DNA of 64,000 bases from a virus. A program made the position numbers and the translations under genes. Every line of letters begins with the position of its first letter. Position 1 is the first letter of the stretch. The stretch spans positions 1 to 64,000 of the IMG/VR virus record IMGVR_UViG_3300033149_004566, one strand, 5' to 3'. The notes under the pieces were generated by a model. That model ran no database searches. It was not told the origin of the DNA and was given only the letters and a program-made list of their open reading frames with translations. Below, piece after piece: positions 11,297 through 62,329 of this stretch.

Positions 11297-11544
11297 TTTT
11301 TTAACCTTTCGAGTATTTTTAAAAATGTGTCCGCACCGACATCGCCCTTCTCTATGAGAGGATAAGACAACACTCTAACCGCTTTAATTAACTCGTCTAT
11401 TCTCTTATCGACTCTTTCTATCTCATTCATCAAGCGCCGTTCCATTCCCTTGGATTGGGGAACCATGTCGTCATCTTTTTTGGTAGAAGCGGTCGGTTTT
11501 CTGCCCGCCGGTTTTGATCTTTTAGCTGCTGGCAATAAACTCAC
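11293..11544 (-). CDS. Hypothetical coiled-coil protein
   Basis: Overlaps polB and the nuclease gene. Confidence 0.55.
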   Translation of the reverse strand: MSLLPAAKRSKPAGRKPTASTKKDDDMVPQSKGMERRLMNEIERVDKRIDELIKAVRVLSYPLIEKGDVGADTFLKILERLKK

Positions 11545-16809: not shown

Positions 16810-18594
16810 TCATTTATAAATCTTTTCATTAACCGAAAATTCAGCCCTTTCGTGAAATTCCTCGCGCTTGGATGGATTCCACCCGCTAACGGGTCTATAA
16901 TATCCAACAATTCTAGACCATATTTCCACGTCTCCACCACAAGTTGGACATATGACATACGAGCCGACAATTGATTTCCTACATTTTTCACAGTGCGTTA
17001 AATTTGGAGTCACCGAAAAATATCCCAAAGATGAATTCTCTGCCACGTTCTTGATAAATTTTGAAAGCCCGTCGAAATTCGGCAATTCATCGATAAAAAT
17101 ATGCGTCATGCAGCCACCCGTGAATATCCTCTGGAACTCTCCCTCTATCTTGACTTTCAAATAAAGATCGTTCACGTCGACCGGTAAATGCGTCGAGTTG
17201 GTGTATTCTTCTTTTCCGTCAACGTTTATCGAAATGTACGACTTTCCGCGAAATCTTTTCTTATCATAATATGCGAATCTCGCGGCAGTTCTCTCAGCTG
17301 GCGTTTGTTCCAGGTTCCACAACGTCTTGTCGATCTTTTGGAACTCGGTTATCTTTTCTCTCACGTGTCCCAAGACTTTATTCACGAACTCGACGGATTC
17401 TTCCTCCCAAATCGGCTTTCCCAGATAATTCATGCACATGTCGTGCATTCCTATGATCCCGATGGTGTTGAAATGTGTTTTCAACTTTCTTGGAAGATAA
17501 GTGCGAATGGTCGGTATCATGCCCATCTCGTAAGATTTCAACACGTTTTTCCTCTTCCAATTCAGCTGTTTTCTCGCCATGTATAACAATTCATCTATCC
17601 TGTAAAAGAGCTCGTCATCGTCCCTACACGTGTAGCCGAGCCTCGGCATGTTCAGAGAAACCACGCCTAAAGATCCGGTAGACTCGCCTATAGACCACGT
17701 TCCTCCGAGATGTGCCTGGACTTCAGCATAGTTGATATTGAGACGGCAGCACATCGCAAGAATGCTTTCTCTATCCAAGTAATCCACGTTATAATTCAAG
17801 AAGTACGGCTGTCCTCTAAGAGCTGTCATTTCAAACATGTATCTGGACATTTCACTATCGTAATCAAATTCCGGGCTCAACTCTACCGTTATTATGGGAA
17901 ACGTGAACGGAGCACCGTGATAATCCCCGTCAACGTGAATCTCACAAAAGGCCCTGTTGATCATGTCAATCTCGTTTTTACAATCATGATAAGTGAAAGT
18001 CATTTCCTCTCCACCCACGTAGGGAACTTTATCATCATATCTTTTGGGAATTGCCTGACAAATATTGAAGTTCATGAAAGGGCTCTGGAATCCATAGCGG
18101 CTCGGCTGATTTAGGTTGAAATAAAGCGACTGAATCTCTTGTCTGACCTGACGGTAATTCAATCCATCATTTTTGACAAACGGTGCCAACAACACGTCAA
18201 CATCACCGAACGCTATTGCGCCCGCAACTTCCTGCTGCACGCTCGTGGTAAAATTAATCAATTGATTTAACACCGTTGATAAATGCTTGGGAGGGCCAGC
18301 TCTTTTGGACAACTTCAAACCATCCATTATTATACTTTCAAGTGGAAAACTGGAACAATACGGCATGTACTCCGCCGTCCACAGGTCATGGAAGTGTAAA
18401 TCGCCCCTATCGTGTGCTTTTGCACTCTCGGGATAAAATTTAGCAATTTCAACCAGGGCGTGTTTTTTCATGTGATTTTGAACTATCCAGTTATACAAGC
18501 CGCTGGCACACACGGTAGTATTGGCATTATCATTTTTATGATAACCATTATTCTTATAATCGTATATTATTCTATCTAATGTTTTCATTTGCAT
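16810..18594 (-). CDS. nrdD: Anaerobic (class III) ribonucleotide reductase
   Basis: HFHDL, MCCRL, EQTPAE, YTNS, CxxC..CxxC and glycyl-radical SRIVGYY. Confidence 0.93.
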   Translation of the reverse strand: MQMKTLDRIIYDYKNNGYHKNDNANTTVCASGLYNWIVQNHMKKHALVEIAKFYPESAKAHDRGDLHFHDLWTAEYMPYCSSFPLESIIMDGLKLSKRAGPPKHLSTVLNQLINFTTSVQQEVAGAIAFGDVDVLLAPFVKNDGLNYRQVRQEIQSLYFNLNQPSRYGFQSPFMNFNICQAIPKRYDDKVPYVGGEEMTFTYHDCKNEIDMINRAFCEIHVDGDYHGAPFTFPIITVELSPEFDYDSEMSRYMFEMTALRGQPYFLNYNVDYLDRESILAMCCRLNINYAEVQAHLGGTWSIGESTGSLGVVSLNMPRLGYTCRDDDELFYRIDELLYMARKQLNWKRKNVLKSYEMGMIPTIRTYLPRKLKTHFNTIGIIGMHDMCMNYLGKPIWEEESVEFVNKVLGHVREKITEFQKIDKTLWNLEQTPAERTAARFAYYDKKRFRGKSYISINVDGKEEYTNSTHLPVDVNDLYLKVKIEGEFQRIFTGGCMTHIFIDELPNFDGLSKFIKNVAENSSLGYFSVTPNLTHCEKCRKSIVGSYVICPTCGGDVEIWSRIVGYYRPVSGWNPSKREEFHERAEFSVNEKIYK

Positions 18595-26276: not shown

Positions 26277-27133
26277 TTAACGGTACGTTCAATACCATCG
26301 CTCCAACTAACGCGGGGTCTCCACCCCATGGTTCTCATCTTCACGTAATTAAGTCCCTGATGCACGATTTCTCTCACGTTGTTTTCTTTTTTAACATGCA
26401 ACAATTCCGATGAAGGAAAGAATCGCGCCAAATCCTTCACGACTTCTTCTTGTGTCTTTCTAACACCGGTTCCGACGTTCCAAGCTTCGCCAGCCGTTGT
26501 ATCAATGTGATCCATGAGAAAGATGAGAGCATCAACAACATCATCCACGTAAATGTATTCTCTCGTGGATGCATCATCATAAATCACGGCCTTGTTCTTG
26601 GCAATTAAACACCGCAGGGTGTTGGGAATAATCCTCTTATTTTTATCGCCGGGCCCGTACACGTTAACTGATCTCATCACTGTAGCGTTCACGTTCATTT
26701 CATTCGCAAATATTAACGTCGCCTGATCCGCTGCAGCTTTAGTAGCACCGTAGATGTCGATCGGCCTTAACGGGCAATTTTCATCCGTCGGTATTACATC
26801 AGCATTGCCGTATACTTTATCGGTGCTCATCACCACGACGTCGATATCATACCTGGACGCCACCCTAAGGACGTTTAACGTGCCAATTACATTTGTATTA
26901 TATGACGTCCACGGAATTCTCTTGGCCCGAGCGACAATCGTTTCCGCGGCAAGATGATATATCTTCCTCACGTCTTTTTTTACAACTATCTCGTTCAATC
27001 TATCATGGTCAGTCACGTCACCAACAACGTCGCGTTCTTCTCTAGATCCGTAACGCGTCAGACCCCACGCATCGAGACGTTTTCTCAGATGGCTTCCGAT
27101 GAAGCCGCTACTTCCCGTTACCAATACTTGCAA
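26252..27133 (-). CDS. NAD-dependent nucleotide-sugar epimerase/dehydratase
   Basis: TGSSGFIG, HLAA, STDKVYG, YGATK, NVYGPGD. Confidence 0.92.
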   Translation of the reverse strand: MQVLVTGSSGFIGSHLRKRLDAWGLTRYGSREERDVVGDVTDHDRLNEIVVKKDVRKIYHLAAETIVARAKRIPWTSYNTNVIGTLNVLRVASRYDIDVVVMSTDKVYGNADVIPTDENCPLRPIDIYGATKAAADQATLIFANEMNVNATVMRSVNVYGPGDKNKRIIPNTLRCLIAKNKAVIYDDASTREYIYVDDVVDALIFLMDHIDTTAGEAWNVGTGVRKTQEEVVKDLARFFPSSELLHVKKENNVREIVHQGLNYVKMRTMGWRPRVSWSDGIERTVKWWKKELV

Positions 27134-27938
27134 CTCTCAAATACCTCCTTAAATCGTCTTTAAGATCGTCTTCAGCTTCGTGAAGATAATCGTAAAATTT
27201 CATTTTTTCCATCGTCATGTTTCCGTGATGAATGATGTTGTACCGCGTGTAAACTGGATTTTTCGGCGAAAGAACTTCATGAACCGGTCTACTCCACGTC
27301 AGACTTTTCTTATACAGCCTGCACTGCCAATCTGGATAATCAAACATCTTTTCATTTATCCTGCGAAAATAAAAAGCGTCGTTGTCCGGATTTTGTTCTA
27401 TGAGAGATTTTAGATTTTTTCTTCCCACGTATTCCATCGTCTCATCGGCATCCAGCGTGAAAAGCCACTCGTGCTTTGCTATGGACGCCGCAAAATTTCG
27501 CAATTCGCTAAAAGATCCGTTAAAACTCGTCTTTATGAACTTGATCGGCATTCCAACGTATAAAGACACGTCAAAATCGAACGGATAATCGGTTTCGTGG
27601 AGTATCATCACTTCATCAACGTGCCTCGCCACCTGTCTTATCGTCCTGTAAATGGTGTTCCACTCGTCCTTCAGTATCTGATAGAACGTTATCTTCGTGG
27701 TTTTTTTGACGCGATCTATCAGATCGCCATATATGTCGTACTCTTCAAGTCTCAACATGGATCCGAAATAATTTTTATATTCAAATATTTCCATCAGATT
27801 GCAATTGTTGCAATACGCTTTCGCCATAAGAGCTTCTCTATTATAATCCGTTCTCAACCCGAAATGTATGTTTCCTTTATGACAATTCGGACACTTGAAC
27901 GTTTTTTTATTCTTGCGTTTCTTTTTACGCTTCGTCAT
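27108..27938 (-). CDS. Elf1-like zinc ribbon fused to family 2 glycosyltransferase
   Basis: MTKRKKKRK..FKCPNC..AYCNNC..EEYDIYGDLID followed by FSELRN, WLFTLDADE, PVHE. Confidence 0.75.
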   Translation of the reverse strand: MTKRKKKRKNKKTFKCPNCHKGNIHFGLRTDYNREALMAKAYCNNCNLMEIFEYKNYFGSMLRLEEYDIYGDLIDRVKKTTKITFYQILKDEWNTIYRTIRQVARHVDEVMILHETDYPFDFDVSLYVGMPIKFIKTSFNGSFSELRNFAASIAKHEWLFTLDADETMEYVGRKNLKSLIEQNPDNDAFYFRRINEKMFDYPDWQCRLYKKSLTWSRPVHEVLSPKNPVYTRYNIIHHGNMTMEKMKFYDYLHEAEDDLKDDLRRYLRVASIGNGK

Positions 27939-39268: not shown

Positions 39269-39420
39269 TTCCGGGTCTACTTTTGGACGATAAATCGCTT
39301 TTCACACTCCTTACAGGTTATGATCAAATGTTTCGGGCCGTCGGACGTTGACGTGACCTCGATGTGGAACGCGTCGCAGCCGCAGTAGGGGCACTTAATT
39401 TTACCACGCATCACTTTCAA

Positions 39421-49934: not shown

Positions 49935-50320
49935 TTGAAAAGGGCATGTGCCCTATTAGAGCCCCACATAGAGCTAAAAAAATACGTGCCATGATTTCCG
50001 AGTTTGGATTTCGGATAGGCGACCCCGAGCTCAGATCTCCTTTAACTATGGACTTGCTTTTGAAAAATAGAGAAAAAATTCAAAAACAAATTGCCGAAGA
50101 AACGTCAGAAACTGCTCTGGAAATGCTGAATAAATCTCTAAATAAATTGAATGACAGGATAAAGTATCGCGAGGAAATGTTGCGGACGGTTTTATATCCG
50201 AAGGGTAAAGTTCCTTTCTCGATACAAAAAAAGTTTCCGATGTCGTTCTGGTCTACTAAAGGTGGGTTGAGAAATGTTCAAACGGTTGGTGTGAGAAGGC
50301 GTGGACGTAAGAAGCATTAG
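49931..50320 (+). CDS. Hypothetical protein
   Basis: Overlaps terminase start. Confidence 0.6.
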   Translation: MIEKGMCPIRAPHRAKKIRAMISEFGFRIGDPELRSPLTMDLLLKNREKIQKQIAEETSETALEMLNKSLNKLNDRIKYREEMLRTVLYPKGKVPFSIQKKFPMSFWSTKGGLRNVQTVGVRRRGRKKH

Positions 50321-51989
50321 TCCGTTTTTGGATGATTTTCTAAAAAAATACGATTTCAAGGGCATGGATGATAACAGAATCATGAAGATGCTCTTGTCGT
50401 CTTTAGATTGGTCTACGTTTGCGGAAACGTGGTTTAGAAACCCAATAGATCCCACGCTACCATTAAAATTGGAAAAGTTTCAGCGCCGCATCATAAATTA
50501 TTTTCAATACGGCAAGTGCAGTAACATAATTGTCAAGTGCCCCCGTCAATTTGGTAAAACCACTCTCATATCGATATTGTGTAATTTAATTGCCATTTTT
50601 GATCCGGGTGCTAAGATAGGCCTATTTTCTACATCACACGACCAGTCCAAGGAGATATTGGGTAAGGTCAGGAAATTCATGAGAACGTCGGCATTTTCTT
50701 ACTTACTTGACGATAAAAGCGTTCAAACGCAAACCGAAATAAATTATAAGGATCCTCGCGGCCTTGGGCATGGGTGCAGGATTAAAGCGTATTCTAGTTC
50801 TGGCAAAACCGTTCGTGGCCCCGATTTGACTTACACGTTTATGGATGAAATGGGCCAAATGGACGACGACTTCGTAAATCAGGTTGTCCGTCCGATGGGA
50901 AGGGCTGTTGGAAAGAAAGAACTCGGGGCAAGCACTCCTTTCGGTACGAGGGGCGAGTTTTGGAACTCACATGAGAAGCCGTATCATTGGGAATGTCAAT
51001 CGTGTCATGCTAAGGGCTTTGATGAACCACACCCTTACACGTGCCCGAAATGCGGCGGTTCAGTTCAGACTCTTGGCCAATATAAAGTGTTTGATGTTTC
51101 ACCTCTTGACGTGTCTTGGATCACGCCCGAAAAACTTGCGGCAGAAGCTGCACGTCTCGGCCCGATTGCAGCGCAACAGGAGCTGTTTGGAGAGTTTATC
51201 CCGGCCGGAGATACTTATTTTAGACACGACTGGATAGTGAATGCCAGGGTTTTCACGCCAGAGCAAAATTCAAGATTTTCATCCATGGGAAAACCGTATT
51301 ATACCTATTATCTTTCCACGGATTATGGTAAACAACGTGATAGAGGCGTGATCATGATAGGCCATTTTCAGGATGACGTGTTGTATCTGGATTGGGTCGA
51401 ATCACATCTAAAAATGCCGTATCCAAGATTTCAAGATAGAATGAAAACTCTTTGTGATAGATATAATGTTTCAGAGGCCATTTTGGATGGGAACGGTGTC
51501 GGAATTGCTCTCATAGATTATCTCCGCGAGGACGTGCAGGTGCCGATTTTTACCAACAAGCCCGATTTGGGCCCCGGATATAAGTACGGTAACAAGGAGA
51601 AATTTCAGATGTTGGAAGCTCTTGCCAACATGTTGATACGGAAGAGAGTTCGTTGGCCGTATCATGAAAATCACTCTGACCCGAGGCAGGAAATGTATGA
51701 GTTATACATGATGGAGCAGGAGCTCATCAATTATTCTTATGAATGGGGAAAATCGTCAATCATAATGGGAACTCAGAGCGAGCACGACGATAGGGTCATG
51801 GCTTTGGCACAGCTCGTTGGGGCAACAATGATGACACATTTTGACGATGTCATGCCGTATGGGGCTTCTGACGTGTCAAGAGATGATCGCGGATGGCCGG
51901 TTTTTGACGAGGTCGGGGAAGAATTTGACGTGATGTGGGTTGATAACACGACGGATCCGGAGTACGAAATATATGACACCATCTTCTGA
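50301..51989 (+). CDS. terL: Terminase large subunit
   Basis: PRQFGKTT, TFMDEM, ASTPFG, STDYG, LDGNGVG, HDDRV. Confidence 0.93.
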   Translation: MDVRSISPFLDDFLKKYDFKGMDDNRIMKMLLSSLDWSTFAETWFRNPIDPTLPLKLEKFQRRIINYFQYGKCSNIIVKCPRQFGKTTLISILCNLIAIFDPGAKIGLFSTSHDQSKEILGKVRKFMRTSAFSYLLDDKSVQTQTEINYKDPRGLGHGCRIKAYSSSGKTVRGPDLTYTFMDEMGQMDDDFVNQVVRPMGRAVGKKELGASTPFGTRGEFWNSHEKPYHWECQSCHAKGFDEPHPYTCPKCGGSVQTLGQYKVFDVSPLDVSWITPEKLAAEAARLGPIAAQQELFGEFIPAGDTYFRHDWIVNARVFTPEQNSRFSSMGKPYYTYYLSTDYGKQRDRGVIMIGHFQDDVLYLDWVESHLKMPYPRFQDRMKTLCDRYNVSEAILDGNGVGIALIDYLREDVQVPIFTNKPDLGPGYKYGNKEKFQMLEALANMLIRKRVRWPYHENHSDPRQEMYELYMMEQELINYSYEWGKSSIIMGTQSEHDDRVMALAQLVGATMMTHFDDVMPYGASDVSRDDRGWPVFDEVGEEFDVMWVDNTTDPEYEIYDTIF

Positions 51990-52746
51990 CTTGCGGCCGA
52001 AAATATCCCTTTTTACGTTATTGCCTTACGTGATTCAGGAGCATAAAGCCAAGCGTGCCGGCTTACACTACGACTTTCGCGTGAAGCGCGGCGAAAATGA
52101 TTGGGAATCCTGGGCGATAAGAAAGGGATTTCCGAAAAAGCCCGGGATAAAACATCTGGCCGCACCGACGCCGAGTCATGATGAATATTGGGCAAAATTT
52201 AGCGGCGTCATACCCAGGGGTTACGGCTCCGGTAGACAGAAAGTCGTTGAAAGCGGAAAAATAGACGTGATAAGGGAGCGAAAGAAAAAAAATAAATCGA
52301 TTACTTTCAAAAAGGGAAAAGATTATTACACCATGATAAAGTTAAAAAAGGGAAAAAATTGGTTGATTTTTAAAAACGAGTCGGTGAAGTGGCGCAGGAC
52401 GAAGAGCGGGGGCAAATTTCCGAAGATCGATGAGATGGAAAAGGGAATGCCAAAAATGACGAACAAGCAATATAAGGAGTTTTACAAGCGGATGTTGGAC
52501 TTGGGCTTGTTGAATCAATATAAAACGATTGGTAAGCCCATAAAACAGGATCATGGGGGCATACCCATAATAGAAGATGGAATGTCGGCTCTTTCGGCTT
52601 ATCCTACAGCTATAGGGGAAGTGTGTCCGAAATGTGGACACCCGGAAATAAAAACGTGGCAGCGTCAGACTAGATCTGCTGACGAACCGATGACGCAGTT
52701 TTTCAGATGTGTCAGGTGCGGATATACCTGGAGGGAATACGATTGA
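51973..52746 (+). CDS. LigD-type 3'-phosphoesterase fused to TFS/TFIIS C-terminal zinc ribbon
   Basis: VIQEH..LHYDFR..SWAIRKG..HLA....H...FSGVIPRGYGSG; CPKCG..QRQTRSADEPMTQFFRCVRCGYTWREY. Confidence 0.88.
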   Translation: MTPSSDLRPKISLFTLLPYVIQEHKAKRAGLHYDFRVKRGENDWESWAIRKGFPKKPGIKHLAAPTPSHDEYWAKFSGVIPRGYGSGRQKVVESGKIDVIRERKKKNKSITFKKGKDYYTMIKLKKGKNWLIFKNESVKWRRTKSGGKFPKIDEMEKGMPKMTNKQYKEFYKRMLDLGLLNQYKTIGKPIKQDHGGIPIIEDGMSALSAYPTAIGEVCPKCGHPEIKTWQRQTRSADEPMTQFFRCVRCGYTWREYD

Positions 52747-53054
52747 GCGTGACGTATAACGGTTACACGGCAATACAGCCGAGAGTCATGTTGAAAGAAT
52801 ATATTAAGAGGACAAATAATATTCCAGAAAGACGCGATGATAAATATGATAGAAATCCGAAAGGAAAACATGCTAAATTAAAAACAAAAGAACCGAAGAG
52901 ACCCAAATATGATAAGAGTAATAGTAAGCCCGGACTTACCGATGATCAGATTCGTGGAAACCCGAAGGATTGGAAAAATTATACGATCGTGTTAAAAAAT
53001 GTCAAAAAGATGCCGAAAATGGTTTTTGATCAATATGAGAGGTGTAGGGTTTAA
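52707..53054 (+). CDS. Basic hypothetical protein
   Basis: ORF between PE-TFS gene and portal; start uncertain. Confidence 0.5.
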   Translation: MCQVRIYLEGIRLSVTYNGYTAIQPRVMLKEYIKRTNNIPERRDDKYDRNPKGKHAKLKTKEPKRPKYDKSNSKPGLTDDQIRGNPKDWKNYTIVLKNVKKMPKMVFDQYERCRV

Positions 53055-54865
53055 TGGACGACGAATATGACGCATGGATGGACGTGTACAAGCCGGAAAG
53101 AGTTGAAATTGAGAATTATGAAGATATAAATGATCTTTCTAATAGCATCGTGTCCATGGAGGTTGGGTACGAAGTTGCCATAAATATAGAAGATACGGCA
53201 CAGGAAGACGTCAATTGGTATTATCAAACGCAGGACGAAGAAATACGCCGCCTGAAAAGGCATCTCATTAAAAAAACACCGCAAAATTTGAGTTGGGCGT
53301 TTTGGGAAGATGATACTGCACAAGCATTTGCCATGGTTATAACTTATACTATAATAGGTGATGGCATAAGAGTGCGACCGAGAAAGGACGGCTTGAAGAA
53401 AAAGAAAAAAGAAAAATTAGAAAGAATTATAGATGATTTCAATAACAATATCAACGAACGCGGAGAAGACGTGTATGATATAATTCATCAAGCCGTGATA
53501 GGTAACGTGATACATGGAAAACAATTATTTAAAAAGGTGTTTAGAAAAGATCCGTACACTGGAAAGGAATATTTGTCTCTTTATGAAATAGACATGAGAA
53601 CCATATCTGAACTTGTAAATCCCATTCATGGATACAGGAAGTTCGTGCAGGATCATTACATTAATGAAGAATTGCGCGACATTGATAGAAAAACATTCAT
53701 GGAAACGTACGATCCTTTTATAAATCCGGAAGATAAAAAAGTGATTAATATGGGAATTGCGAGGCACAGGGTTCCGGTTTATGATAATGAAGTTCTTTTC
53801 TTTAAATTTTATAAAAAGCCCCCAATGAGATCTATTGTTGATCTAATAGTTTATAAAAAATGGATTTATTATTTCATGAAACAGGCCGCCAAAGTTAGGG
53901 GCGTTCCGCCTCCAGTAATTACCGTTGGCAATCAGCAGAGCCATCCGACTTCACGTGATTATCCAAAGTATCTAAAAAGGGCCGCTCAAATTGGTGGAAA
54001 ATTAAAAAATTGGGATGCCCTTTCGATGCCTTGGAATTGGGCAGTACAGTGGATGGAAGGTGGAAGGCCGTTTGATTTCACGCCACATCTTCAATTTATC
54101 AATAGGAGAATTGTTTTCTCATTGCTCGGTTCGATATCTCTCTTGGAAGGCGCATCTGGAGAGCTTCATGGCCATGTCATAGAAACGGTTTGGCTTCGTG
54201 TAATTTCAGCATTTAGAAGAAAAATAGCTAGGGTGTTAGAAAAGTGCTACAATGAAGTACTCAAGATGAATGGCATCAACGAGGAAGTTGTCATTGAGTG
54301 GACGCCTTTACGTGAGCCCATTAGTAAAGCTGAAATTGCCGCGATATTATCATCGTTATTCCAATTGAATGCTCTGAAGGATGTTAATGAGTTACGTGAA
54401 TTATTTTCAAAGAATGGCATAATAGATTTGTCTCCGATGGATGAAGATGAAGAAGAAAAAGGCTACGCTGGTACCGGAGTTGAAGAATTGATAACGTCGG
54501 TTATGCCGGTACAAATGGAAAATAAAATATTAAAACAAAAACTCGAAGAATTTAGTAAAACTGGCGATTTCAATAGAAAACAAGTTCACGTGAAAAATTT
54601 AAAAAGAAGCCTGTCGATGTTGAACAATTCTTTGGGAACTGAACAGGCAAGACCCGAAAAAGCCGTGAAAAAACCGTCGATAAAAACTCCCATGAATCCA
54701 AAACCGGATTCACTTGGTCATTCATCTTTGAAGATACCATCTTTGAAGGTAAAAAAGGAAGGACAGCAATACATGGAAGCATCATCCGACGATGAAAGCA
54801 CGTGTTATGAGGAAGACGGCGTGAAAAAAGGATATTGCCCGGAGGAAATAAAAAATGGAAAATGA
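53054..54865 (+). CDS. Portal protein
   Basis: Size and position between terL and MuF; helical pattern with EVVIEWTPL near the end. Confidence 0.75.
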   Translation: MDDEYDAWMDVYKPERVEIENYEDINDLSNSIVSMEVGYEVAINIEDTAQEDVNWYYQTQDEEIRRLKRHLIKKTPQNLSWAFWEDDTAQAFAMVITYTIIGDGIRVRPRKDGLKKKKKEKLERIIDDFNNNINERGEDVYDIIHQAVIGNVIHGKQLFKKVFRKDPYTGKEYLSLYEIDMRTISELVNPIHGYRKFVQDHYINEELRDIDRKTFMETYDPFINPEDKKVINMGIARHRVPVYDNEVLFFKFYKKPPMRSIVDLIVYKKWIYYFMKQAAKVRGVPPPVITVGNQQSHPTSRDYPKYLKRAAQIGGKLKNWDALSMPWNWAVQWMEGGRPFDFTPHLQFINRRIVFSLLGSISLLEGASGELHGHVIETVWLRVISAFRRKIARVLEKCYNEVLKMNGINEEVVIEWTPLREPISKAEIAAILSSLFQLNALKDVNELRELFSKNGIIDLSPMDEDEEEKGYAGTGVEELITSVMPVQMENKILKQKLEEFSKTGDFNRKQVHVKNLKRSLSMLNNSLGTEQARPEKAVKKPSIKTPMNPKPDSLGHSSLKIPSLKVKKEGQQYMEASSDDESTCYEEDGVKKGYCPEEIKNGK

Positions 54866-54992
54866 TGAGGTTTATGCAACCGTTGTAAGATACGCGTGTA
54901 AGACACCGCATAAAAAAATACGATCCAAGGGAAAGGGACGCGGAAAAGCCAGGGGCAAGGGTAAAGGCCCGATTGGTATTCCTATAAAGTAG
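54855..54992 (+). CDS. 45-aa Gly/Lys-rich protein
   Basis: GGAGG SD; TPHKKIRSKGKGRGKARGKGKGPIGIP. Confidence 0.55.
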   Translation: MENDEVYATVVRYACKTPHKKIRSKGKGRGKARGKGKGPIGIPIK

Positions 54993-55002
54993 AGGTGTTA
55001 AA

Positions 55003-55263
55003 ATGGATTCATCCATATGGTTGATGGAAGTTGTTCGTCTCGAATCTGAAAAATGGAAAGACGAGGATACTGAGCCATCTGAAGGAATGTCTGAAGAGGA
55101 AAAATCTGAAGTTGTAAAAAAAGCGAAAAAAGGTAAAGATATCGGTAAAAAGGGAAAAAAATTTAAAGAAGTGGCTGAAAAAGCGGCAGAAAAGTACGGA
55201 TCTAAAGAAGCCGGTGAAAAAGTTGCTGCTGCCGCAATGTGGAAAAATTTGAAAGGTAAATGA
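55003..55263 (+). CDS. Small basic virion-associated protein
   Basis: KKAKKGKDIGKKGKKF...YGSKEAGEKVAAAAMWK; GAGGTG SD. Confidence 0.7.
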   Translation: MDSSIWLMEVVRLESEKWKDEDTEPSEGMSEEEKSEVVKKAKKGKDIGKKGKKFKEVAEKAAEKYGSKEAGEKVAAAAMWKNLKGK

Positions 55264-55266
55264 TCA

Positions 55267-57525
55267 ATGATACCCGTGTCCGTATTGATGGAACCGCCCA
55301 AGGTGGTAAAAGATCCTTTAAAATCATCGTCATTGATAAAGTCATTCGTGATGATGAATAAAATGAAATTTAAGGGTCTGGTTCCAAAAATAATGGACGC
55401 TATCAGGCAATCCAGGCGCGTTGTTCAGATGGAAACCGGTGCACGATATCTCAAGAGATACATCGATAACATGTTATATAATAGCATTGTCGATCCGCAT
55501 TTATTGGATAGGATGAAGTCATTCGTGGAAAACACGTATATTCAACACTCTAGAATGTTGCAAGAAGAATTGTATAAATTGAAGATGGTTCCCACGACAA
55601 TGGCCGTCATGACTCCTACTGATGAGGACAGGGTAGAGGATAGAAAGGATACTATAGAAAAAATGGCAAGCCTGGAAGCCGAACGCTTGAGTGCGAGGAT
55701 TCATGACATAATAGATAGGGCTTATCATAATGCCGAACCGTTATACAAAATAAAAAAAGAACTACAAAAATCCATAAAAGTTAGCAAGAAAGAATCCGCT
55801 AGAATTGCCAGAACCGAGCTCATAAAAACCATGAACTTGGCCAGGTTGGAACGTATGACTTCATCGGGGATCGAATATTATCAGTGGGTTTCGGCTCCTT
55901 CGTTTGATGAGAGATTGTGTCCTTTATGTGGCGAATTAAATGGAAAAGTAATAAAGTTGGGCAGGTCGTTTTCGGATTTAGTGCGAAACGAATCATCCAA
56001 GAAAATAATGGGAACTAGACAGATCTATTATCCTCCGGCACATCCGAATTGCAGGTGCACTATAAGGCCATCTTATGCTCCGGTAATTACCAGGCCGTTA
56101 AAAGAACCGAAATTTATAAAGAAAATATTCGATAAGTTTCCTGGCTTGAGGCCCAAAACCTTGATAACACAAAAGATCGGCCCGACTTCGATAGATATCA
56201 TACAGGCGGAAGAATTAGAGGACTGGCACGAATTGCACGATTTATATTTAAATGAATCGAAAAGATGGGGTGGCGATCTTCGTAAGCGATTGATATATCA
56301 GGCGATGGAAGCAAAAAATAGGGCAATGAAGGAAGACATAGAATTATTCGAGCGCGATAACTTGGAGGAAATGGAAAAGCCGAAATGGACGCATTATCCT
56401 TTAACAAAAGATGAAATTTATTATCATTATGCGCGAAATTGGGATAAATTGTATCCGGAATTGAAGGGCCGAAGAGTGGCGATCCGTAACCGCAGGGGCG
56501 TCATTTTACGTAATTGGGAGCCCGGTGGAAAGCCCATAGAAATAAAAAATAAAAATGATTTAAAAAAAGTAGTCTATAATAAAAATGCGGTTGAATTGAT
56601 TCCGGAGTTGAGCACCAAAAGGATGAAACCATCAAATACAAGAAGGTTTCTCGTGGATTTAGATTCAAATAGACCGATAGACGAGACGGTTGTCAAAAAA
56701 ACAGTTGAAAAAATGAAAACGCTGCCGGTCAATAATGTTCAGGTTATATTTTCCGGGAAGCGTGGATATCACGTTAGAGGTGATACAAAAAAGAGTTACA
56801 CGTGGAAAAAAGCGAGAAAAATGCTTCGTGAGGCGATGAAGCCTCTATCAGAACAATACAATGATATAATTTTTGATTTATCACCCATGAAAAGACGTGG
56901 AGTTAGTGTATCTCCTTATAGTTTGAGATATTTGCCGACAGAAAGACAGGGCGTTGCACATCACGTGCAATTTGAAGAGTGGTATGAAAAGGGTGCGTTA
57001 GGCACGCGGGACATAATTCCGGAAAAATTAAAATTGCCTAGCGGAAGAAATGCTTTCTTCAGGAAAACGTTTCTTGGCATCCAAAAACGAAAGTTGTATA
57101 CCGAACAGGAATATAAATTGCAGGCGGCTTTACCGATCATATCGGCATTGAAACACGATCTCGATTTATCCGATTCGGTACAAAAAGAAGCGAAAAGGAT
57201 ATTTAAAAAGGCTTATAGTAGCGGGATAACACAGGGTAGAAAAACATCGTCCAATGCCGCGGTATCTGTTTACAATGCCATGAGATCGTTGGGAATGAGC
57301 AGGCCGATAAAAGATTTTCTTCCGCATGCAAATGTAAAGACCGGATCTTTTGTCAGGGCGGTTAAAAAATTTCAGGACGCTTTAAACTTGCCAAAATTTA
57401 AAGTCGGAAAGCGCGCCGACGTGGAAGAGGCAAGAAAGTATTATAAAAGCATGAAACGTACCGGTATAAGCAAGCGTAAAGTTGCAAGAATGTTTGGCGT
57501 GTCTCCGTCGAGTATAGGTGATTAG
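55267..57525 (+). CDS. MuF/SPP1 gp7-like head protein carrying LigD-polymerase, TFB-core and HTH domains
   Basis: RIARTE, CPLC..LNG, PPAHPNCRC; TKDEI..Y, VDLD, SGKRGYH, IIFD, SPYSLR; cyclin-fold segment EAKRIFKKAYSSGITQGR..AAVSVY. Confidence 0.85.
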   Translation: MIPVSVLMEPPKVVKDPLKSSSLIKSFVMMNKMKFKGLVPKIMDAIRQSRRVVQMETGARYLKRYIDNMLYNSIVDPHLLDRMKSFVENTYIQHSRMLQEELYKLKMVPTTMAVMTPTDEDRVEDRKDTIEKMASLEAERLSARIHDIIDRAYHNAEPLYKIKKELQKSIKVSKKESARIARTELIKTMNLARLERMTSSGIEYYQWVSAPSFDERLCPLCGELNGKVIKLGRSFSDLVRNESSKKIMGTRQIYYPPAHPNCRCTIRPSYAPVITRPLKEPKFIKKIFDKFPGLRPKTLITQKIGPTSIDIIQAEELEDWHELHDLYLNESKRWGGDLRKRLIYQAMEAKNRAMKEDIELFERDNLEEMEKPKWTHYPLTKDEIYYHYARNWDKLYPELKGRRVAIRNRRGVILRNWEPGGKPIEIKNKNDLKKVVYNKNAVELIPELSTKRMKPSNTRRFLVDLDSNRPIDETVVKKTVEKMKTLPVNNVQVIFSGKRGYHVRGDTKKSYTWKKARKMLREAMKPLSEQYNDIIFDLSPMKRRGVSVSPYSLRYLPTERQGVAHHVQFEEWYEKGALGTRDIIPEKLKLPSGRNAFFRKTFLGIQKRKLYTEQEYKLQAALPIISALKHDLDLSDSVQKEAKRIFKKAYSSGITQGRKTSSNAAVSVYNAMRSLGMSRPIKDFLPHANVKTGSFVRAVKKFQDALNLPKFKVGKRADVEEARKYYKSMKRTGISKRKVARMFGVSPSSIGD

Positions 57526-58093
57526 ATTGCCGATAACAGTAAAAATGAGCTCTTTAAAATTAAAAAGGTTGATTCCACAGGCAATATATCATATAAAAAG
57601 CGAAGCCGCGCAAATATTGATGTTTAGCATAATAGAAGTTTTCATGCAACAGGGACTTCCGGATGAACAATGGAAGCAGTTGTCGGCGATAACTGTCGAG
57701 AAAAAACACTCCAGATCTATTTTGATAGATAAGGGATTTTTGATGAACTCCATTACGGTTGGGCCAATCGATGTTGATAAACCCGTGGAAGTTGGAATAT
57801 TTGAAGGGCCCGCTCTCAGGTATGCTTGGATACATGAGTTTGGTGGCACGATTCCGGTTACTGACAGCATTAGAAAATTTTTTATAGCAAAGACCGCAGA
57901 AGAACGAAGACAACGTCCAGGATTGCCTGAAGATTCTTACACGTGGCATCCTTTGAGAAATGATACTAACGTGATATCAATTCCGGCAAGACCCTTTATG
58001 AGGTGGGGCGCCATCATTGCACGTCCTAAAATTAGTAAAATGGCTGAAAGAGTTTGGTATACGATGATTAATCAGGGATTGATAATTAAATGA
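57518..58093 (+). CDS. Phage virion morphogenesis protein (Mu gpG-like)
   Basis: W..LS..T, ILIDKG.L..SI, YAWIHEFGG, IPARPFM. Confidence 0.85.
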   Translation: MIRLPITVKMSSLKLKRLIPQAIYHIKSEAAQILMFSIIEVFMQQGLPDEQWKQLSAITVEKKHSRSILIDKGFLMNSITVGPIDVDKPVEVGIFEGPALRYAWIHEFGGTIPVTDSIRKFFIAKTAEERRQRPGLPEDSYTWHPLRNDTNVISIPARPFMRWGAIIARPKISKMAERVWYTMINQGLIIK

Positions 58094-58926
58094 AAACATT
58101 ACCCATTTATACGTTGCAAGACACTCTAAATCCTGAAATTTGGATAGGAGATGGTAAAAATGCAAGATTGCGAAAAAAAATTAAAAATGTCATCATGGAT
58201 TCCGTTCGTAAATCTTTGGATAAATACGGTGGTAAGCCAAAGCGTATCATCATCGTTGGCTCCTCTGTTGCTTATAGATGGCGAAAAGACGGTGATATTG
58301 ACGTACACGTTGAGGGAAAATTTCCCATCAATGACTATGAGGTGGACGAATATAAAATACCCGGATCAAAATTGACTATAGAGGTGGTATTAACCAATCA
58401 AAAATTTCCCAGTACAACGCGCGCTGAGGGCGTTTATAACGTGGTGATGGATAAATGGATTAAAACTCCAGAACGATTTCCGGGCAAGGTTTATTGGGAT
58501 CCATTAATAGAGGAAGCGTCTTCATGGGCTAGAAAGGTGGATCTCGATATGGGCGAATTAAAACGCGATCTTCTCGAATATATTTTATATAAAGAGAATG
58601 GCGGCGACGAGTCTGCCCTTGCAAGAAAAGCCGACGAAATAAAATCCGATTTGAATAGCATTGTTGATACTTGGGATGCTCTAAAAAATGAAAGAACGAA
58701 GGCACTTTCCGGCGATTCCGACGACACGAGGTTTTTTAAAAATCCGAGCAAGTCATCCATGTTGCAACCGGAAAATTTGATATTTAAAATACTGCAGAGA
58801 TTTCAGTACAACGATTTGATGAAGCGCGTGAAACAACTCGTCAGGGATCTTCAGGACGAGACGAATTTTGATGTTATTGAGAGGATAATAACGAGATTTT
58901 TGAAGAAGGAAAGGTGGATTAAATGA
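58090..58926 (+). CDS. Pol-beta-superfamily nucleotidyltransferase
   Basis: VGSS..Y.W...GDIDVHV, IEV, GVY.....WIK. Confidence 0.75.
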   Translation: MKTLPIYTLQDTLNPEIWIGDGKNARLRKKIKNVIMDSVRKSLDKYGGKPKRIIIVGSSVAYRWRKDGDIDVHVEGKFPINDYEVDEYKIPGSKLTIEVVLTNQKFPSTTRAEGVYNVVMDKWIKTPERFPGKVYWDPLIEEASSWARKVDLDMGELKRDLLEYILYKENGGDESALARKADEIKSDLNSIVDTWDALKNERTKALSGDSDDTRFFKNPSKSSMLQPENLIFKILQRFQYNDLMKRVKQLVRDLQDETNFDVIERIITRFLKKERWIK

Positions 58927-59402
58927 ATAGGAAAGCCAAACTCATGCTCAAAGGTATGAACGAAAGAAATGCAAAGATTTCCAATGAATTAATGTCAATA
59001 GCCATACCCGGAGAACACGGCACGGGAATACCGGTTCTTCATCCGTATCAAAGATTGAGACATTGGTATTTCAAGAAAAAAATGGAACAGGCCAAAAAAT
59101 TGGCAAAAAAATATAAAGAAGGAACTCCTGAATACAGGGCATACATGGATGCATTTAATGTTGCAGTTGGTAAAACTTTAGCGGCTTATAGAAAGAGCCG
59201 CGATCTGACTTTCCCGATGATGGCCGAGTTTGAAGAATTAAAAGAAAAATTGGAAAGATTTGCGTGTCCTAAAAGTGGTGAACGCAGCGGTTATAACGTT
59301 CATGCTGTTTGTACTGAAAGTGTATGCGGCGACGCAGAAGACGTGGAAAAATGTAGAGAATCTGATAAATATAAGAGATGTACTGAAAAGGTAGGAAAAT
59401 GA
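58923..59402 (+). CDS. Hypothetical protein
   Basis: Coupled ORF. Confidence 0.6.
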   Translation: MNRKAKLMLKGMNERNAKISNELMSIAIPGEHGTGIPVLHPYQRLRHWYFKKKMEQAKKLAKKYKEGTPEYRAYMDAFNVAVGKTLAAYRKSRDLTFPMMAEFEELKEKLERFACPKSGERSGYNVHAVCTESVCGDAEDVEKCRESDKYKRCTEKVGK

Positions 59403-59638
59403 TACGTAAAGCTCGCTCTAAAAGACCGTATAAGCCGTTAGATCTATCAAAACGCTTACAGATAATGTTGATGGCAATGGAAGATTATTCAATATCTTCC
59501 ATATCTAAAGAGTTACGTGTTGCTCGTAATACCGTTAAAAAGTATATTGAGCCAAAAGAGAAGGATAGAACTATGACCGACATTGTAGAAGTGGTCAAGG
59601 TCTTGACAAAAAACAAGAAAAAAACTCCATTAGAATGA
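59399..59638 (+). CDS. Helix-turn-helix protein
   Basis: SISSISKELRVARNTVKKYI. Confidence 0.7.
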   Translation: MIRKARSKRPYKPLDLSKRLQIMLMAMEDYSISSISKELRVARNTVKKYIEPKEKDRTMTDIVEVVKVLTKNKKKTPLE

Positions 59639-59722: not shown

Positions 59723-60955
59723 GTGATCTCGATGAAACATGATGAGTTGGAATACTACAATGAGCCAAAAATTACGAGTCTGGAGAGAAAAGGTAACAGT
59801 TTGATATTTGAAACCGTTACTCTCACGGATAAGTACGTGCCTACAAACGTTCTTAAAGAAAATTACAACACAATAGAAAATAAAGAAATGAGATGGCGGC
59901 ATTTACCTCCGGAAGAGAATGCGAGTTCTTTTATAGGGGTGGTAAAAAATGCCAGGCTTGAAGAGATCACTGATAAGTCTGGCGATAAAGTGACGGCGTT
60001 GATTACTAAAAATGAAATCTTTGGTAACACGAAGTCGCAAAAAAAAGCACAATCTCTGATAGAAAAATGTTATGAAAACGGCGAGGGCGTTTGTGGTGTA
60101 AGTGCCGGCTTTGTTAAATTATCTGATGATGATGGTAATGTTGTCGGCATGCATATAAGAGAATTGAGTCTTACACCGAGACCTAAATGTAAGGAATGTG
60201 GTGTGTTGACTCCAGAAGGTGTCGTATTAGAGATGACAGATAAGTTAAAAGAACATTATAAACCAGACATTGGCGACTCGCAAAAACCAAAAGGACACAT
60301 GGAAGGCGGACAAAAAACATCTTCTGCCAAGTCCGACGTTGGAAGCGGAGTCAACGAAGAGTCTGGAAAACAGAAAAATAAAAAGAAAAAATTGAAACCA
60401 TCTTCATATGGCATGGAAGACGATGAAAGTCTTCATGGTGCCATAGGGGTGTACGAAAAGATGAACAAGGTTTTAGAAAATAGGAACATTGAACTCGAAG
60501 TTCTTTCCGAAGAGCTGGTAAGTAGGGTTGAATCTTATGAATCAAAAATAAAGCAATTGGAAGATTTATTGGTTCAGTCTACCGCTTATATTGAAGAGCT
60601 TGAGGATAAGAATGAAAAACTTGCTACGATTCCATTACGTATGAGAATTGCGGAACTAAAAGGCTTGGAAGATCCCGAAGAAATTAAAGAAGTTCTTGAA
60701 CGATATGAAGACAGATCATTCGATTATTTAGTCGATATAGTTGAAGAATTGGAAGATTTGAAATCTGAAGGGCAGGACAAGATTATAGCGGAAGAGTACG
60801 AGGAAAAACAACCCGATAAACAGGTAGCAATTGCCATGGAAGAAGAACAGGTCGTACAATTTGAAGATTTGACGGATCCCAATGACATATTAAAACATGC
60901 CGGTTTTTCGGAATATGAAATACAGCAAATTTCACGGGGAGCATCTGTTAGGTGA
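59723..60955 (+). CDS. Prohead protease-scaffold fusion
   Basis: RWRH, GVSAGF, RELSLT..P followed by an acidic coiled coil; directly upstream of capsid genes. Confidence 0.8.
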   Translation: MISMKHDELEYYNEPKITSLERKGNSLIFETVTLTDKYVPTNVLKENYNTIENKEMRWRHLPPEENASSFIGVVKNARLEEITDKSGDKVTALITKNEIFGNTKSQKKAQSLIEKCYENGEGVCGVSAGFVKLSDDDGNVVGMHIRELSLTPRPKCKECGVLTPEGVVLEMTDKLKEHYKPDIGDSQKPKGHMEGGQKTSSAKSDVGSGVNEESGKQKNKKKKLKPSSYGMEDDESLHGAIGVYEKMNKVLENRNIELEVLSEELVSRVESYESKIKQLEDLLVQSTAYIEELEDKNEKLATIPLRMRIAELKGLEDPEEIKEVLERYEDRSFDYLVDIVEELEDLKSEGQDKIIAEEYEEKQPDKQVAIAMEEEQVVQFEDLTDPNDILKHAGFSEYEIQQISRGASVR

Positions 60956-60960
60956 TTTAA

Positions 60961-61389
60961 ATGACAAATGTAAATTACATATTGAAACGAGATTTTCCGA
61001 TCACGTTTGAAGCCACCGCAACAGAAGATTTGGGTATGGATAGTACCGGCAAAACATGGCCGGAAGCACCGGATACGACTGTTGGGTTATTGCTTCAATT
61101 TACAGGCGACGATCAGGTGGGATTGTGCGATCCGTCCAGTGGAACGTACTTTGCTGGAGTTAGTGAAATTCCAGTTTATTCCGGGCAAAAAGCCACGGTT
61201 AGAACATCAGGAATCATTTTGGTTGTTGCTGGCGAAACAATAGTCGCGGGACAACACGTGAAAGTTGACGAATCCACGTCTCAACGAGTTGCAGTAGCAG
61301 GCGCAACGGAAGCCACCAAGATTATTGGTAGAGCAATAACTGGCGGAAACGACGGAGACACGATAAAAATCTTATTGAGAGGTTATTAA
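60961..61389 (+). CDS. Head decoration/cement protein (DUF2190-like)
   Basis: FAGVS, VRTSG..VVAGETIVAG..V, IIGRAITGG..GDTIKILL. Confidence 0.75.
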   Translation: MTNVNYILKRDFPITFEATATEDLGMDSTGKTWPEAPDTTVGLLLQFTGDDQVGLCDPSSGTYFAGVSEIPVYSGQKATVRTSGIILVVAGETIVAGQHVKVDESTSQRVAVAGATEATKIIGRAITGGNDGDTIKILLRGY

Positions 61390-61390
61390 C

Positions 61391-62329
61391 ATGAGTGTTA
61401 CACATTTAGCTAATACAGCATTACATCCGAGAGTTATTCTTGCAATCGCTGTAAAGCGAGCGCAGGGTGCGATGATCAGTACCGATTTCTTACCGGAACG
61501 TCCAGTAAATAATAAGGTATTTGAATATCGCGAGTACGGTCAAACAGATCGTGAAATCGGAACGTTGGCTCCGGAAGTAAATGAAGGCGATACTACACCA
61601 TTGGACAAACTTGGATACGAGATGCGAGTTAAACGAGCAAAGGAAATACGTTTGGGAACTCTAATTACAGAACAAGCACAAAAGTTCTTGTTTAGAGATG
61701 TGGTTAAAGACCACGTAACATATATTACGGATCGAATTGCTCTTAAACAGGAATCTATGGCATTCGACGAATTATTTGAGGTAAGTTCTGTAACCGGTGC
61801 TTTAAAAACGACTAAAGATCTGACAACGTCATGGGACGAAACCGATGCCGAAATCCTTAACGATTTAGCCGATGCTAAGAAACGGTTTAGGGATATTGCT
61901 CACGTCATTCCGGATTCTTTGGTTGTTGGTAGCGATGGTGAGAATGCTTTACTAAAGTCAGTTGAAATGAAATTATGGAGATATTCCGGGCCTTTCACTC
62001 AAACACCGATCATTGAAGGAACGATTGGTCGTCTTAGGGGATTGGACGTGTGGGTTACGGATGCGGTTAAATTAAAAGATAATACAGATCCTACGGCTGG
62101 ATTAATTCCGATTGTTCAGGATCGCGTTTTGGTCACGCGAAGAGGGCCAGATCTGGGTTTTACTGCTATTGCCGAACCTTTTAATTCGCGACGAATTCCC
62201 AAGCCAGGTCGTCGATCCATCATGCTTCAAATGTTTAAGACATTTTTACCGGTGATCATACGACCCAGGCGCATCTACATAATTAACAATATCAGTTCGT
62301 CTTTATCAACTGATACTGCTTTATCGTAA
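61391..62329 (+). CDS. Major capsid protein (HK97 fold)
   Basis: Position; APEVNEG, ILNDLADAK, PDSLVVG, IGRLRGLDV, PVIIRP. Confidence 0.85.
   Translation: MSVTHLANTALHPRVILAIAVKRAQGAMISTDFLPERPVNNKVFEYREYGQTDREIGTLAPEVNEGDTTPLDKLGYEMRVKRAKEIRLGTLITEQAQKFLFRDVVKDHVTYITDRIALKQESMAFDELFEVSSVTGALKTTKDLTTSWDETDAEILNDLADAKKRFRDIAHVIPDSLVVGSDGENALLKSVEMKLWRYSGPFTQTPIIEGTIGRLRGLDVWVTDAVKLKDNTDPTAGLIPIVQDRVLVTRRGPDLGFTAIAEPFNSRRIPKPGRRSIMLQMFKTFLPVIIRPRRIYIINNISSSLSTDTALS

Follow-up and report, generated by a model that had tools for sequence, protein, structure and literature searches.

The window considered here is the first 64 kb of the 112,862-bp IMG/VR virus record IMGVR_UViG_3300033149_004566, and our subject is a group of enzyme genes in its head module (Table 1). 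One encodes a protein in which a MuF minor head domain is followed by a primase-polymerase of the archaeo-eukaryotic primase (AEP) type, assigned to the clade found in LigD and non-homologous end joining (NHEJ), and then by the core of the archaeal transcription factor TFB. A second fuses a LigD-type 3′-phosphoesterase (PE) to the C-terminal zinc ribbon of the transcription factor TFS, and a third encodes a nucleotidyltransferase (NTase). The locus is a Mu-like head-assembly module of an archaeal tailed virus with enzyme cargo grafted in, and the arrangement suggests that the virus injects these repair and transcription-factor tools with its DNA. In the reading we prefer, and to which we give an even chance of being right, the MuF-polymerase-TFB core protein would be packaged, delivered and tethered, PE-TFS would serve as a trimmer and the NTase as an early effector.

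An earlier note on this DNA, prepared from the sequence, had placed two LigD modules, PE and polymerase, in separate head-module genes, each with its own transcription-factor piece, TFS and TFB. Domain searches and modelling confirm this arrangement. The polymerase-TFB gene proved in addition to be a fusion with a MuF head protein, which that description had not included.

The MuF-polymerase-TFB protein

The MuF domain matches Phage_Mu_F (PF04233) with 55.5 bits over profile positions 3–111 of 112, that is, as a complete domain. Fifteen of the 18 PHROG matches of the fusion are to head-morphogenesis, minor-head or other head-and-packaging families, and INPHARED phages match it by the MuF part alone.

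The polymerase domain is weak by sequence alone in this virus, scoring 15.3 bits against PF21686, under the cut-off of 27.4. The orthologue P0012 reaches 28.3 bits against the same cut-off in our scan, and for the orthologue P0006 the family appears in the database's precomputed Pfam list only. Of particular value is the AlphaFold model of the fusion, with pLDDT above 90 over residues 380–570. Superposition with VIA-align onto LigD/NHEJ polymerases (M. tuberculosis, P. aeruginosa and Methanocella) gives Z-scores of 18.9 (PDB code 2irx), 18.6 (2fao) and 18.5 (5dmu), with root mean square deviations (RMSD) of 2.7–3.0 Å over approximately 200 residues. Comparison with replicative PriS, human or yeast, gives a Z-score of about 14.4, below the LigD values. 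The Foldseek E-value of the model is approximately 1e-7. A HMMER search of 1.84 billion representatives ranks Lig-Pol, Lig-Pol-PE and Pol-PE proteins directly after three full-length relatives. As modelled, the domain is closer to the LigD polymerases than to replicative primases.

The AEP motifs DxD, GxRGxH and D-LSPMKRRG are invariant, with Asp464, Asp466, Gly497-Arg499-Gly500-His502 and Asp537 present in all three orthologues, and the catalytic motifs I (DxD), II (sGxGxH) and III (hD) also align with ten AEP relatives. An N-terminal motif, TKDEIYYHY...GRR, aligns with 5dmu; a second lysine of the putative 5′-phosphate pocket is not kept in the orthologues, as judged from the sequence alignment only. 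Between MuF and AEP lies a helical segment (residues 280–375; 56100–56390, + strand) in which the words AEELEDW and WGG-LRK are kept in P0002 and P0006. The segment has no known-domain match and might serve in contact with the portal or in processing.

The C-terminal part matches the TFIIB repeat family PF00382 over residues 617–703 (46.8 bits, E 3e-12) and, by sequence, PDB entry 1d3u_B (E 1.7e-7). The model superposes on the Pyrococcus woesei TFB core (chain residues 1100–1284) with a Z-score of 17.5 and an RMSD of 2.4 Å over 142 residues. Repeat 2 of TFB bears the helix-turn-helix that reads the TFB-recognition element (BRE), and it is in this region that the orthologues carry some 30–40 residues more than the protein of this virus. 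Three terminal helices are modelled here (715–732, 736–743 and 747–751), the last residues being read as a helix-turn-helix; weak HTH_Crp_2 and HTH_28 profiles match the same position in a relative (L101, below). The zinc ribbon, B-reader and B-linker are absent from the fusion gene, PF08271 gives no match, and MuF and AEP occupy the upstream part. In TFB the ribbon, reader and linker recruit RNA polymerase (RNAP), and the core binds promoter DNA with the TATA-binding protein (TBP). With those three elements missing, the TFB piece should bind TBP-promoter DNA yet cannot recruit RNAP. The transcription takeover that had been proposed for these genes is therefore limited: a transcription-factor module is present, without its RNAP-recruiting ribbon and reader.

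Relatives of the fusion

Is the three-part gene more than an oddity of one genome? Among the 1.84 billion representatives AEP and TFB are held together by three clusters only, namely that of this virus, P0006 (828 residues, from a 7-kb ENA contig) and P0012 (795 residues, from a 3.3-kb Logan contig). All three consist of MuF, LigD Prim-Pol and TFIIB parts over their full length, with 32–38% identity and linkers that vary, and the tripartite gene recurs in independent ENA, Logan and JGI samples. On a 3-kb JGI contig (L101) the end of a P0006-type gene is followed by a gpG-like gene and then by a homologue of the NTase, 53% identical. Full-length conservation in three clusters, together with the gpG/NTase order in L101, points to MuF-polymerase-TFB being a selected, though rare, design.

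Of the co-occurrence in related viruses that the earlier note asked about, the relatives show the fusion itself and, in one of them, the two genes that follow it. For this gene the domains are not sporadic and inactive there, since the fusion and the catalytic motifs are kept in all three members.

Searches of viral sequence collections returned less. IMG/VR searched with P0002 alone gave no related locus. With the orthologue alignment the patterns picked were MuF-only, and the search brought back unspecific MuF proteins from phages and prophages of bacteria; the cargo of one, L045, is unrelated. From metagenomes, a degenerate DNA pattern for DLSPMKRRG...P.S.R recovered L101, a true relative, and L100, a match by chance; viral contigs gave no match to it. 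The DNA of the locus gave no match.

The PE-TFS protein

Counted from the ATG at 51973, PE-TFS has 257 residues. The PE domain comprises residues 29–147, a full fold, and is followed by a linker of about 80 residues and a single TFS ribbon. It matches LigD_N (PF13298) with 58.5 bits against a cut-off of 31.1. The closest solved structure is that of the minimal archaeal PE 3p4h (E 5e-18), residues 29–145 aligning with residues 4–117 of the 118 in that entry. The active-site set His-His-Asp-Arg-His is intact, and the segments QEH...LHYDFR...SH align with 3p4h and six PE homologues in a MAFFT alignment. The PE and polymerase domains may have come from a single donor Pol-PE gene, although their best matches are different proteins.

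The ribbon matches Zn_ribbon_TFIIS (PF01096) with 63.8 bits and has the four cysteines (CPKC...CVRC) and an unaltered acidic hairpin, QTRSADEP. The N-terminal TFS ribbon, an Rpb9-like RNAP anchor, was not detected in PE-TFS; the PE domain occupies its place. An identical protein is recorded on two contigs, the longest of 117,419 bp, and a word-indexed search of 5.8 billion clusters found no second fusion of PE with a TFS ribbon.

That this fusion is known only from a single virus lineage raises the question of an assembly or frame-reading artefact, with two neighbouring genes read as one. We consider this extremely improbable. Both open reading frames (ORFs) are uninterrupted, the PE-TFS protein is recorded on two contigs, and the tripartite gene is found in independent ENA, Logan and JGI samples at 32–38% identity.

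The two transcription-factor fragments could also be decoys that block host initiation and elongation, a form of host shut-off in which the LigD-derived domains are inactive scaffolds. A TFB core without any RNAP-contacting element would suit such a role, and archaeal viral inhibitors of RNAP exist, for example ATV ORF145/RIP (PMC5123050, PMC9501531). The enzymes themselves do not fit: all three orthologues share the AEP catalytic residues without change, and PE retains its full set of metal-binding residues. Moreover, the TFS ribbon retains its DE pair, and inhibitory TFS paralogues such as TFS4 differ from a ribbon of that kind. We therefore regard the decoy explanation as improbable.

Two further ribbons were noted on the minus strand. 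A sub-threshold TFIIS-type ribbon lies at 39292–39399 in a 47-residue open frame (E 0.007, 14.1 bits). A borderline Elf1-like ribbon (residues 3–78, 29.6 bits against a cut-off of 29.8) is fused to a GT2 glycosyltransferase in the gene at 27108–27938, in the non-structural arm; the GT2 part resembles Listeria GmaR (PDB code 22ao, E 3e-6).

The nucleotidyltransferase

The NTase of this virus scores 18.6 bits against NTP_transf_2 (PF01909), under the cut-off of 21, and members of its family score 23.6–30 bits, over that cut-off. Gly57, Ser58, Asp69 and Asp71 of the DxD, and Glu98 are invariant in five homologues of 28–73% identity. The best Foldseek matches of an AF2 model (pLDDT 77) are all Pol-beta NTases, ANT(4′)/KNTase followed by CD-NTases and CCA enzymes, with a probability of 0.95 and TM-scores of only about 0.24, low because of a long helical domain. 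A search of PDB sequences gave nothing useful. We assign the protein to the Pol-beta superfamily of nucleotidyltransferases, with its catalytic motif, GS...DxD...E, intact. In the earlier note the NTase was paired with an adjacent helix-turn-helix gene. The NTase stands; the helix-turn-helix gene lies beyond the 3′ limit given there for the set, one 159-residue ORF further on.

The NTase belongs, as a divergent sequence, to the phage family phrog_36119, labelled 'unknown function', which has at least 297 relatives in IMG/VR and is widespread in large tailed phages. Cultured examples include the Maribacter phages Molly (Molly_1) and Colly, Lak megaphages (Lak-A1/B6), T4-like cyanophages and Caulobacter phage Cr30, and the family was also noted in phages S-B68 and S-CRM01. 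We surveyed its neighbourhood in 80 IMG/VR loci (L102–L181). It is mostly a solo protein of about 250 residues, and in 22 of the 80 loci a member lies approximately 4 kb upstream of TerL. In some phages it forms the C-terminal domain of larger proteins with ART/PARP/Tpt1-like N-termini (L106, L122 and L156), and in two (L172 and L153) it is fused to M23 peptidase and peptidoglycan-binding (PG-binding) domains. ART-like and M23/PG-binding partners are typical of virion-borne, injected proteins, which lends indirect support to the family working at entry.

Packaging, delivery and action

How would such proteins reach the cell, and what would they do there? In the reading we prefer, a few copies of the MuF fusion would be loaded into the procapsid via the portal, as in other MuF-effector fusions, and would exit with the DNA. 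The polymerase would attend to the linear genome as it comes in, at its ends or in gaps; it might bind or bridge ends, fill in, add ribonucleotides or prime, and sealing, if any, would fall to a host ligase. By the TFB core the polymerase would be tethered in cis at BRE/TATA-TBP sites on viral DNA; the core's inability to recruit RNAP and the few copies expected make a targeting role for it more likely than global inhibition. PE-TFS would be the matching 3′-end trimmer, directed to the RNAP secondary channel by its active-looking ribbon, and the NTase a further early effector. Each LigD-derived enzyme is thus paired with a transcription-docking fragment, the TFB core for TBP and the promoter and the TFS ribbon for the secondary channel, and the two pairings are separately testable without culture of the host.

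A bolder version makes the injected MuF fusion a promoter-directed primase or RNA-synthesising enzyme, in which the TFB core brings it to BRE/TATA sites occupied by TBP on the incoming genome, the AEP replaces the B-ribbon and RNAP, the first RNA is an early transcript or replication primer, and PE-TFS trims the RNA 3′ end. We rate this version as highly improbable. If true, a repair polymerase and a basal factor would here have been combined into an archaeal equivalent of the virion RNA polymerase of N4.

Packaging, which the earlier note had proposed for the head-module tools together, is supported by analogy for the MuF fusion, with its complete MuF domain and the candidate Mu-type portal gene beside it. 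For the NTase it is weakly supported, and for PE-TFS the sole pointer is the position of the gene between TerL and portal. The analogy derives from bacterial phages. The MuF protein gp7 of SPP1 is portal-bound, with one to two copies of it in each capsid, and it has been proposed that MuF fusions are carried in along with the DNA (Jamet et al. 2017, PMC5576092). 'Polyvalent proteins' that include MuF have been interpreted as early-acting effectors co-delivered with DNA (Iyer et al. 2017, PMC5512222).

The same proteins could instead work late, inside the infected cell and with no delivery at all. The polymerase and PE would then process RNA-DNA junctions, gaps and ends on replicating or packaging DNA, the TFB core and TFS ribbon would bring the enzymes to promoters and to host RNAP that has stalled or backtracked, clearing conflicts of transcription with replication or packaging, and MuF would be a structural neighbour to which the cargo chanced to fuse. 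We hold this explanation to be unlikely, while recognizing that it accommodates several observations. All the genes lie in a late operon right by TerL and portal, the catalytic DE hairpin retained in the TFS ribbon is active only inside RNAP, and the possible third fusion, of the Elf1-like ribbon with GT2, lies outside the head module. It would be hard to explain, were capsid targeting irrelevant, why three members that have diverged to 32–38% identity all retain a full MuF domain in the fusion, and MuF fusions elsewhere are read as delivered effectors (PMC5512222, PMC5576092).

Several points weigh against delivery of a packaged repair kit. The host is uncultured and packaging is deduced from the genes; late genes are expressed within the infected cell too, so that these proteins could do their work there. 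Neither a prohead protease nor a cleavage site came to light, and the 410-residue product of the gene upstream of the scaffold gene is without matches. The idea of polyproteins released on injection is thus not borne out, what is predicted being disordered linkers between the domains of the fusion (residues 251–317 and 574–603). Where the P. aeruginosa enzyme has Tyr88, the PE domain has Trp, with a Tyr one residue earlier (SHDEYW as opposed to DHPLEY), and in this differs from other PEs. Tyr88, four residues past the last His, is reportedly essential in the P. aeruginosa enzyme according to mutagenesis from the Shuman laboratory. The PE-TFS fusion was found only in this virus and a near-identical contig. 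Searches of the whole 112,862-bp genome gave no match at E ≤ 1 to Ku (PF02735), and none to ATP-dependent DNA ligase (PF01068). With both missing, the gene set is not a self-sufficient end-joining kit. Finally, the Elf1-like/GT2 gene hints that this virus may couple enzymes to the transcription apparatus as a general practice, and that such coupling is not a mark of packaging. A practice of that kind would make a packaged toolkit weaker as the unifying idea, and targeting of RNAP or promoters stronger.

Ligases and RNA repair

The absence of Ku and ligase from the window, as reported in the earlier note, holds, and for Ku and ATP-dependent DNA ligase it extends to the rest of the genome; repair or circularisation of genome ends, proposed there as one task of these genes, would accordingly have no Ku or DNA ligase of the virus's own. 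Six LigD-like multidomain queries, run with phmmer against all six frames, matched the polymerase and PE genes only, never a ligase domain. The wider search did produce a T4 Rnl1-type RNA ligase (64.5 bits to PF09511, cut-off 28.3), encoded outside the window in the other arm (111652–112731, − strand). No other ligase was detected in this genome; together with PE, the enzyme could serve in healing and sealing RNA 3′ ends. A search of PDB sequences with it gave nothing useful.

This raises the prospect of an RNA-repair kit directed against host defence, in which PE heals RNA ends with 3′-phosphate or 2′,3′-cyclic phosphate, the NTase rebuilds 3′ ends and the Rnl1 ligase seals them, countering host anticodon or other RNA nucleases in the manner of T4 Pnkp and Rnl1. 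An RNA ligase is encoded, a DNA ligase and Ku are not, and both PE and LigD polymerases favour ribonucleotide chemistry. Set against this, the ligase gene is some 50 kb away, on the opposite strand and in another module. No 5′-kinase turned up, though none was searched for. The folds closest to the NTase are ANT/KNTase-like rather than CCA-adding, and the fusions to MuF, TFB core and TFS are left unexplained. On balance we think an RNA-repair kit distinctly unlikely.

Comparison with known systems

The MuF delivery scaffold is already known; the cargo and the archaeal host domain are new. MuF-anchored cargo is known from bacterial phages and consists mostly of toxins. In common with MuF-effector and polyvalent proteins, the fusion has a complete MuF domain, encoded next to the portal gene, and C-terminal enzymatic domains. 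It differs in its cargo, an NHEJ-type AEP and a TFB core, and no toxin/immunity pair or processing peptidase was seen. Polyvalent proteins are scarce in archaea according to PMC5512222, the text of which mentions neither LigD nor TFIIB. If the reading we prefer is true, this would be the first archaeal virus whose capsid carries into the cell both a repair polymerase and a targeting module derived from a transcription factor.

The similarity to prokaryotic NHEJ is clear at the level of domains. The polymerase is nearest to LigD PolDom and the Methanocella paludicola polymerase (5dmu), PE is nearest to archaeal stand-alone PEs (3p4h, 3p43 and 5dmp), and metal-binding residues are kept in both. 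Unlike NHEJ by LigD and Ku, there is here neither Ku nor ATP-dependent ligase, and the modules are in separate genes, each fused to a transcription factor and one of them to a capsid protein. If the preferred reading is true, LigD modules would have been re-used outside Ku-dependent end joining. The mycobacteriophages Corndog and Omega are said, from 2006 work by Pitcher and colleagues, to encode Ku and to use host LigD for genome circularisation. They too are tailed viruses with a piece of the NHEJ machinery, presumably serving their own genome ends, but they carry Ku, not head-fused, and borrow LigD, whereas this virus carries polymerase and PE and no Ku.

Free-standing TFBs are encoded by magroviruses/Aoguangviridae (PMC10768690), by some rudiviruses and by the Asgard viruses JinchiV1 and PBV300 (PMC13700489). 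Like them, the present case has a TFB-derived module that is encoded by a virus of archaea and understood as a means of exploiting host transcription; it differs in having the core only, repeat 1 and a truncated repeat 2, placed C-terminally on a structural protein.

Proteins that enter with the DNA for tasks of the first minutes include the virion RNAP of coliphage N4, T4 Alt and the Mu N/T4 gp2 proteins, the tasks being transcription, host modification and end protection or circularisation. The likeness is one of strategy. There is no sequence relationship, and delivery has been demonstrated for those proteins where here it is deduced.

The record is probably the Helarchaeota virus 'Nidhogg' or a near relative. 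A preprint (bioRxiv 10.1101/2021.07.29.454249) describes complete, circular Nidhogg genomes within a virus set of approximately 21.9–117.5 kb, and lists a PrimPol and a 'ligD'-TFS zinc-finger gene. In its text 'TFIIB' is absent and 'virion' is used only apart from delivery, and the passages covered describe no MuF fusion. The TROVE and Peptidase_C57 domains reported for Nidhogg were not found in the present genome, so that the identification stays provisional. Should it be the same gene, its annotation as 'ATP-dependent DNA ligase (ligD)' in the preprint is wrong, as PE-TFS has a PE domain only and no ligase domain, and would be corrected to phosphoesterase only.

Genome organisation and host

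The ends of the record carry a 114-bp terminal direct repeat. The plus-strand arm, from approximately 45 kb, is the structural module, and the minus-strand arm (approximately 0.5–41 kb) carries replication and modification genes, including a PD-(D/E)XK nuclease, a C5 methylase and glycosyltransferases as well as a B12-binding protein. The order of the head module is Mu-like: TerL, PE-TFS, portal, MuF fusion, gpG-like protein and NTase, with scaffold and major capsid protein (MCP) further on. All the elements that the earlier note described are encoded on the plus strand. The portal candidate has no Pfam or PHROG profile match, and its assignment comes from the ESM Atlas and its position between TerL and MuF.

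Table 1. Features of the head module and selected genes of the minus-strand arm.
Feature	Position	Strand	Evidence and remarks
PriS-like AEP, weak	9526–10575	−	PF01896 E 0.0015; phmmer E 0.02 against AEP part of a LigD-like protein
PolB	11522–14047		Minus-strand arm
Anaerobic ribonucleotide reductase NrdD	16810–18594		Minus-strand arm
TerL, large terminase subunit	50301–51989	+	PF03354 TerL_ATPase 31.7 bits; phrog_2 E 4.6e-30; opens packaging/head module
PE-TFS fusion gene	51973–52746	+	LigD-type 3′-phosphoesterase, linker, TFS C-terminal zinc ribbon
PE domain	52024–52380	+	PF13298 E 8e-16; PDB 3p4h E 5e-18, 3p43, 5dmp
TFS/TFIIS-type C-terminal zinc ribbon	52615–52743	+	PF01096 E 1.2e-17; PDB 1qyp E 2.4e-12; RPC10, TFIIS
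115-residue ORF, function not assigned	52707–53054	+	No Pfam or PHROG match; between PE-TFS and portal
Portal protein, Mu type (lead only)	53054–54865	+	ESM Atlas nearest clusters Portal_Mu, score 0.94, TM 0.5–0.7
86-residue ORF, function not assigned	55003–55263	+	No significant match
MuF - NHEJ-type AEP polymerase - TFB core fusion, 752 residues	55267–57525	+	
MuF (SPP1 gp7/Mu gpF) minor head domain	55699–56064 (residues 145–266)	+	PF04233
AEP primase-polymerase, LigD/NHEJ clade	56389–57012 (residues 375–582)	+	
TFB core	57091–57522 (residues 609–752)	+	Cyclin repeat 1 complete, repeat 2 shortened
Mu gpG-like virion morphogenesis/Neck1 protein	57518–58093	+	phrog_26 E 1e-15; PF05069 weak; homologue at same position in L101
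Pol-beta-fold nucleotidyltransferase with C-terminal helical domain	58090–58926	+	
159-residue ORF, function not assigned	58923–59402	+	DUF6827 match, sub-threshold only
79-residue helix-turn-helix protein (homeodomain-like/HTH_23)	59399–59638	+	All matches below cut-offs; phrog_4494 E 1.8e-5
410-residue gene	59723–60955	+	No matches
Scaffold/cement-like protein	60961–61389	+	phrog_673 E 1.8e-9
Major capsid protein (MCP)	61391–62329	+	phrog_1650 major head protein E 2.3e-14; closes head module

The presence of TFB and TFS domains identifies the host as an archaeon, probably a member of the Asgard group, Helarchaeota. TBP was not found in the genome. The weak PriS-like AEP of the minus-strand arm is probably the replicative primase, separate from the head-linked polymerase. 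Since the genome has this gene and PolB, the head-linked polymerase cannot simply be equated with a replication primase.

Beside NrdD and sugar-modifying genes lies a B12-binding, corrinoid-type protein (PF02310 and PF02607; 34813–35571, − strand), possibly the product of an auxiliary metabolic gene for life in an anaerobic host.

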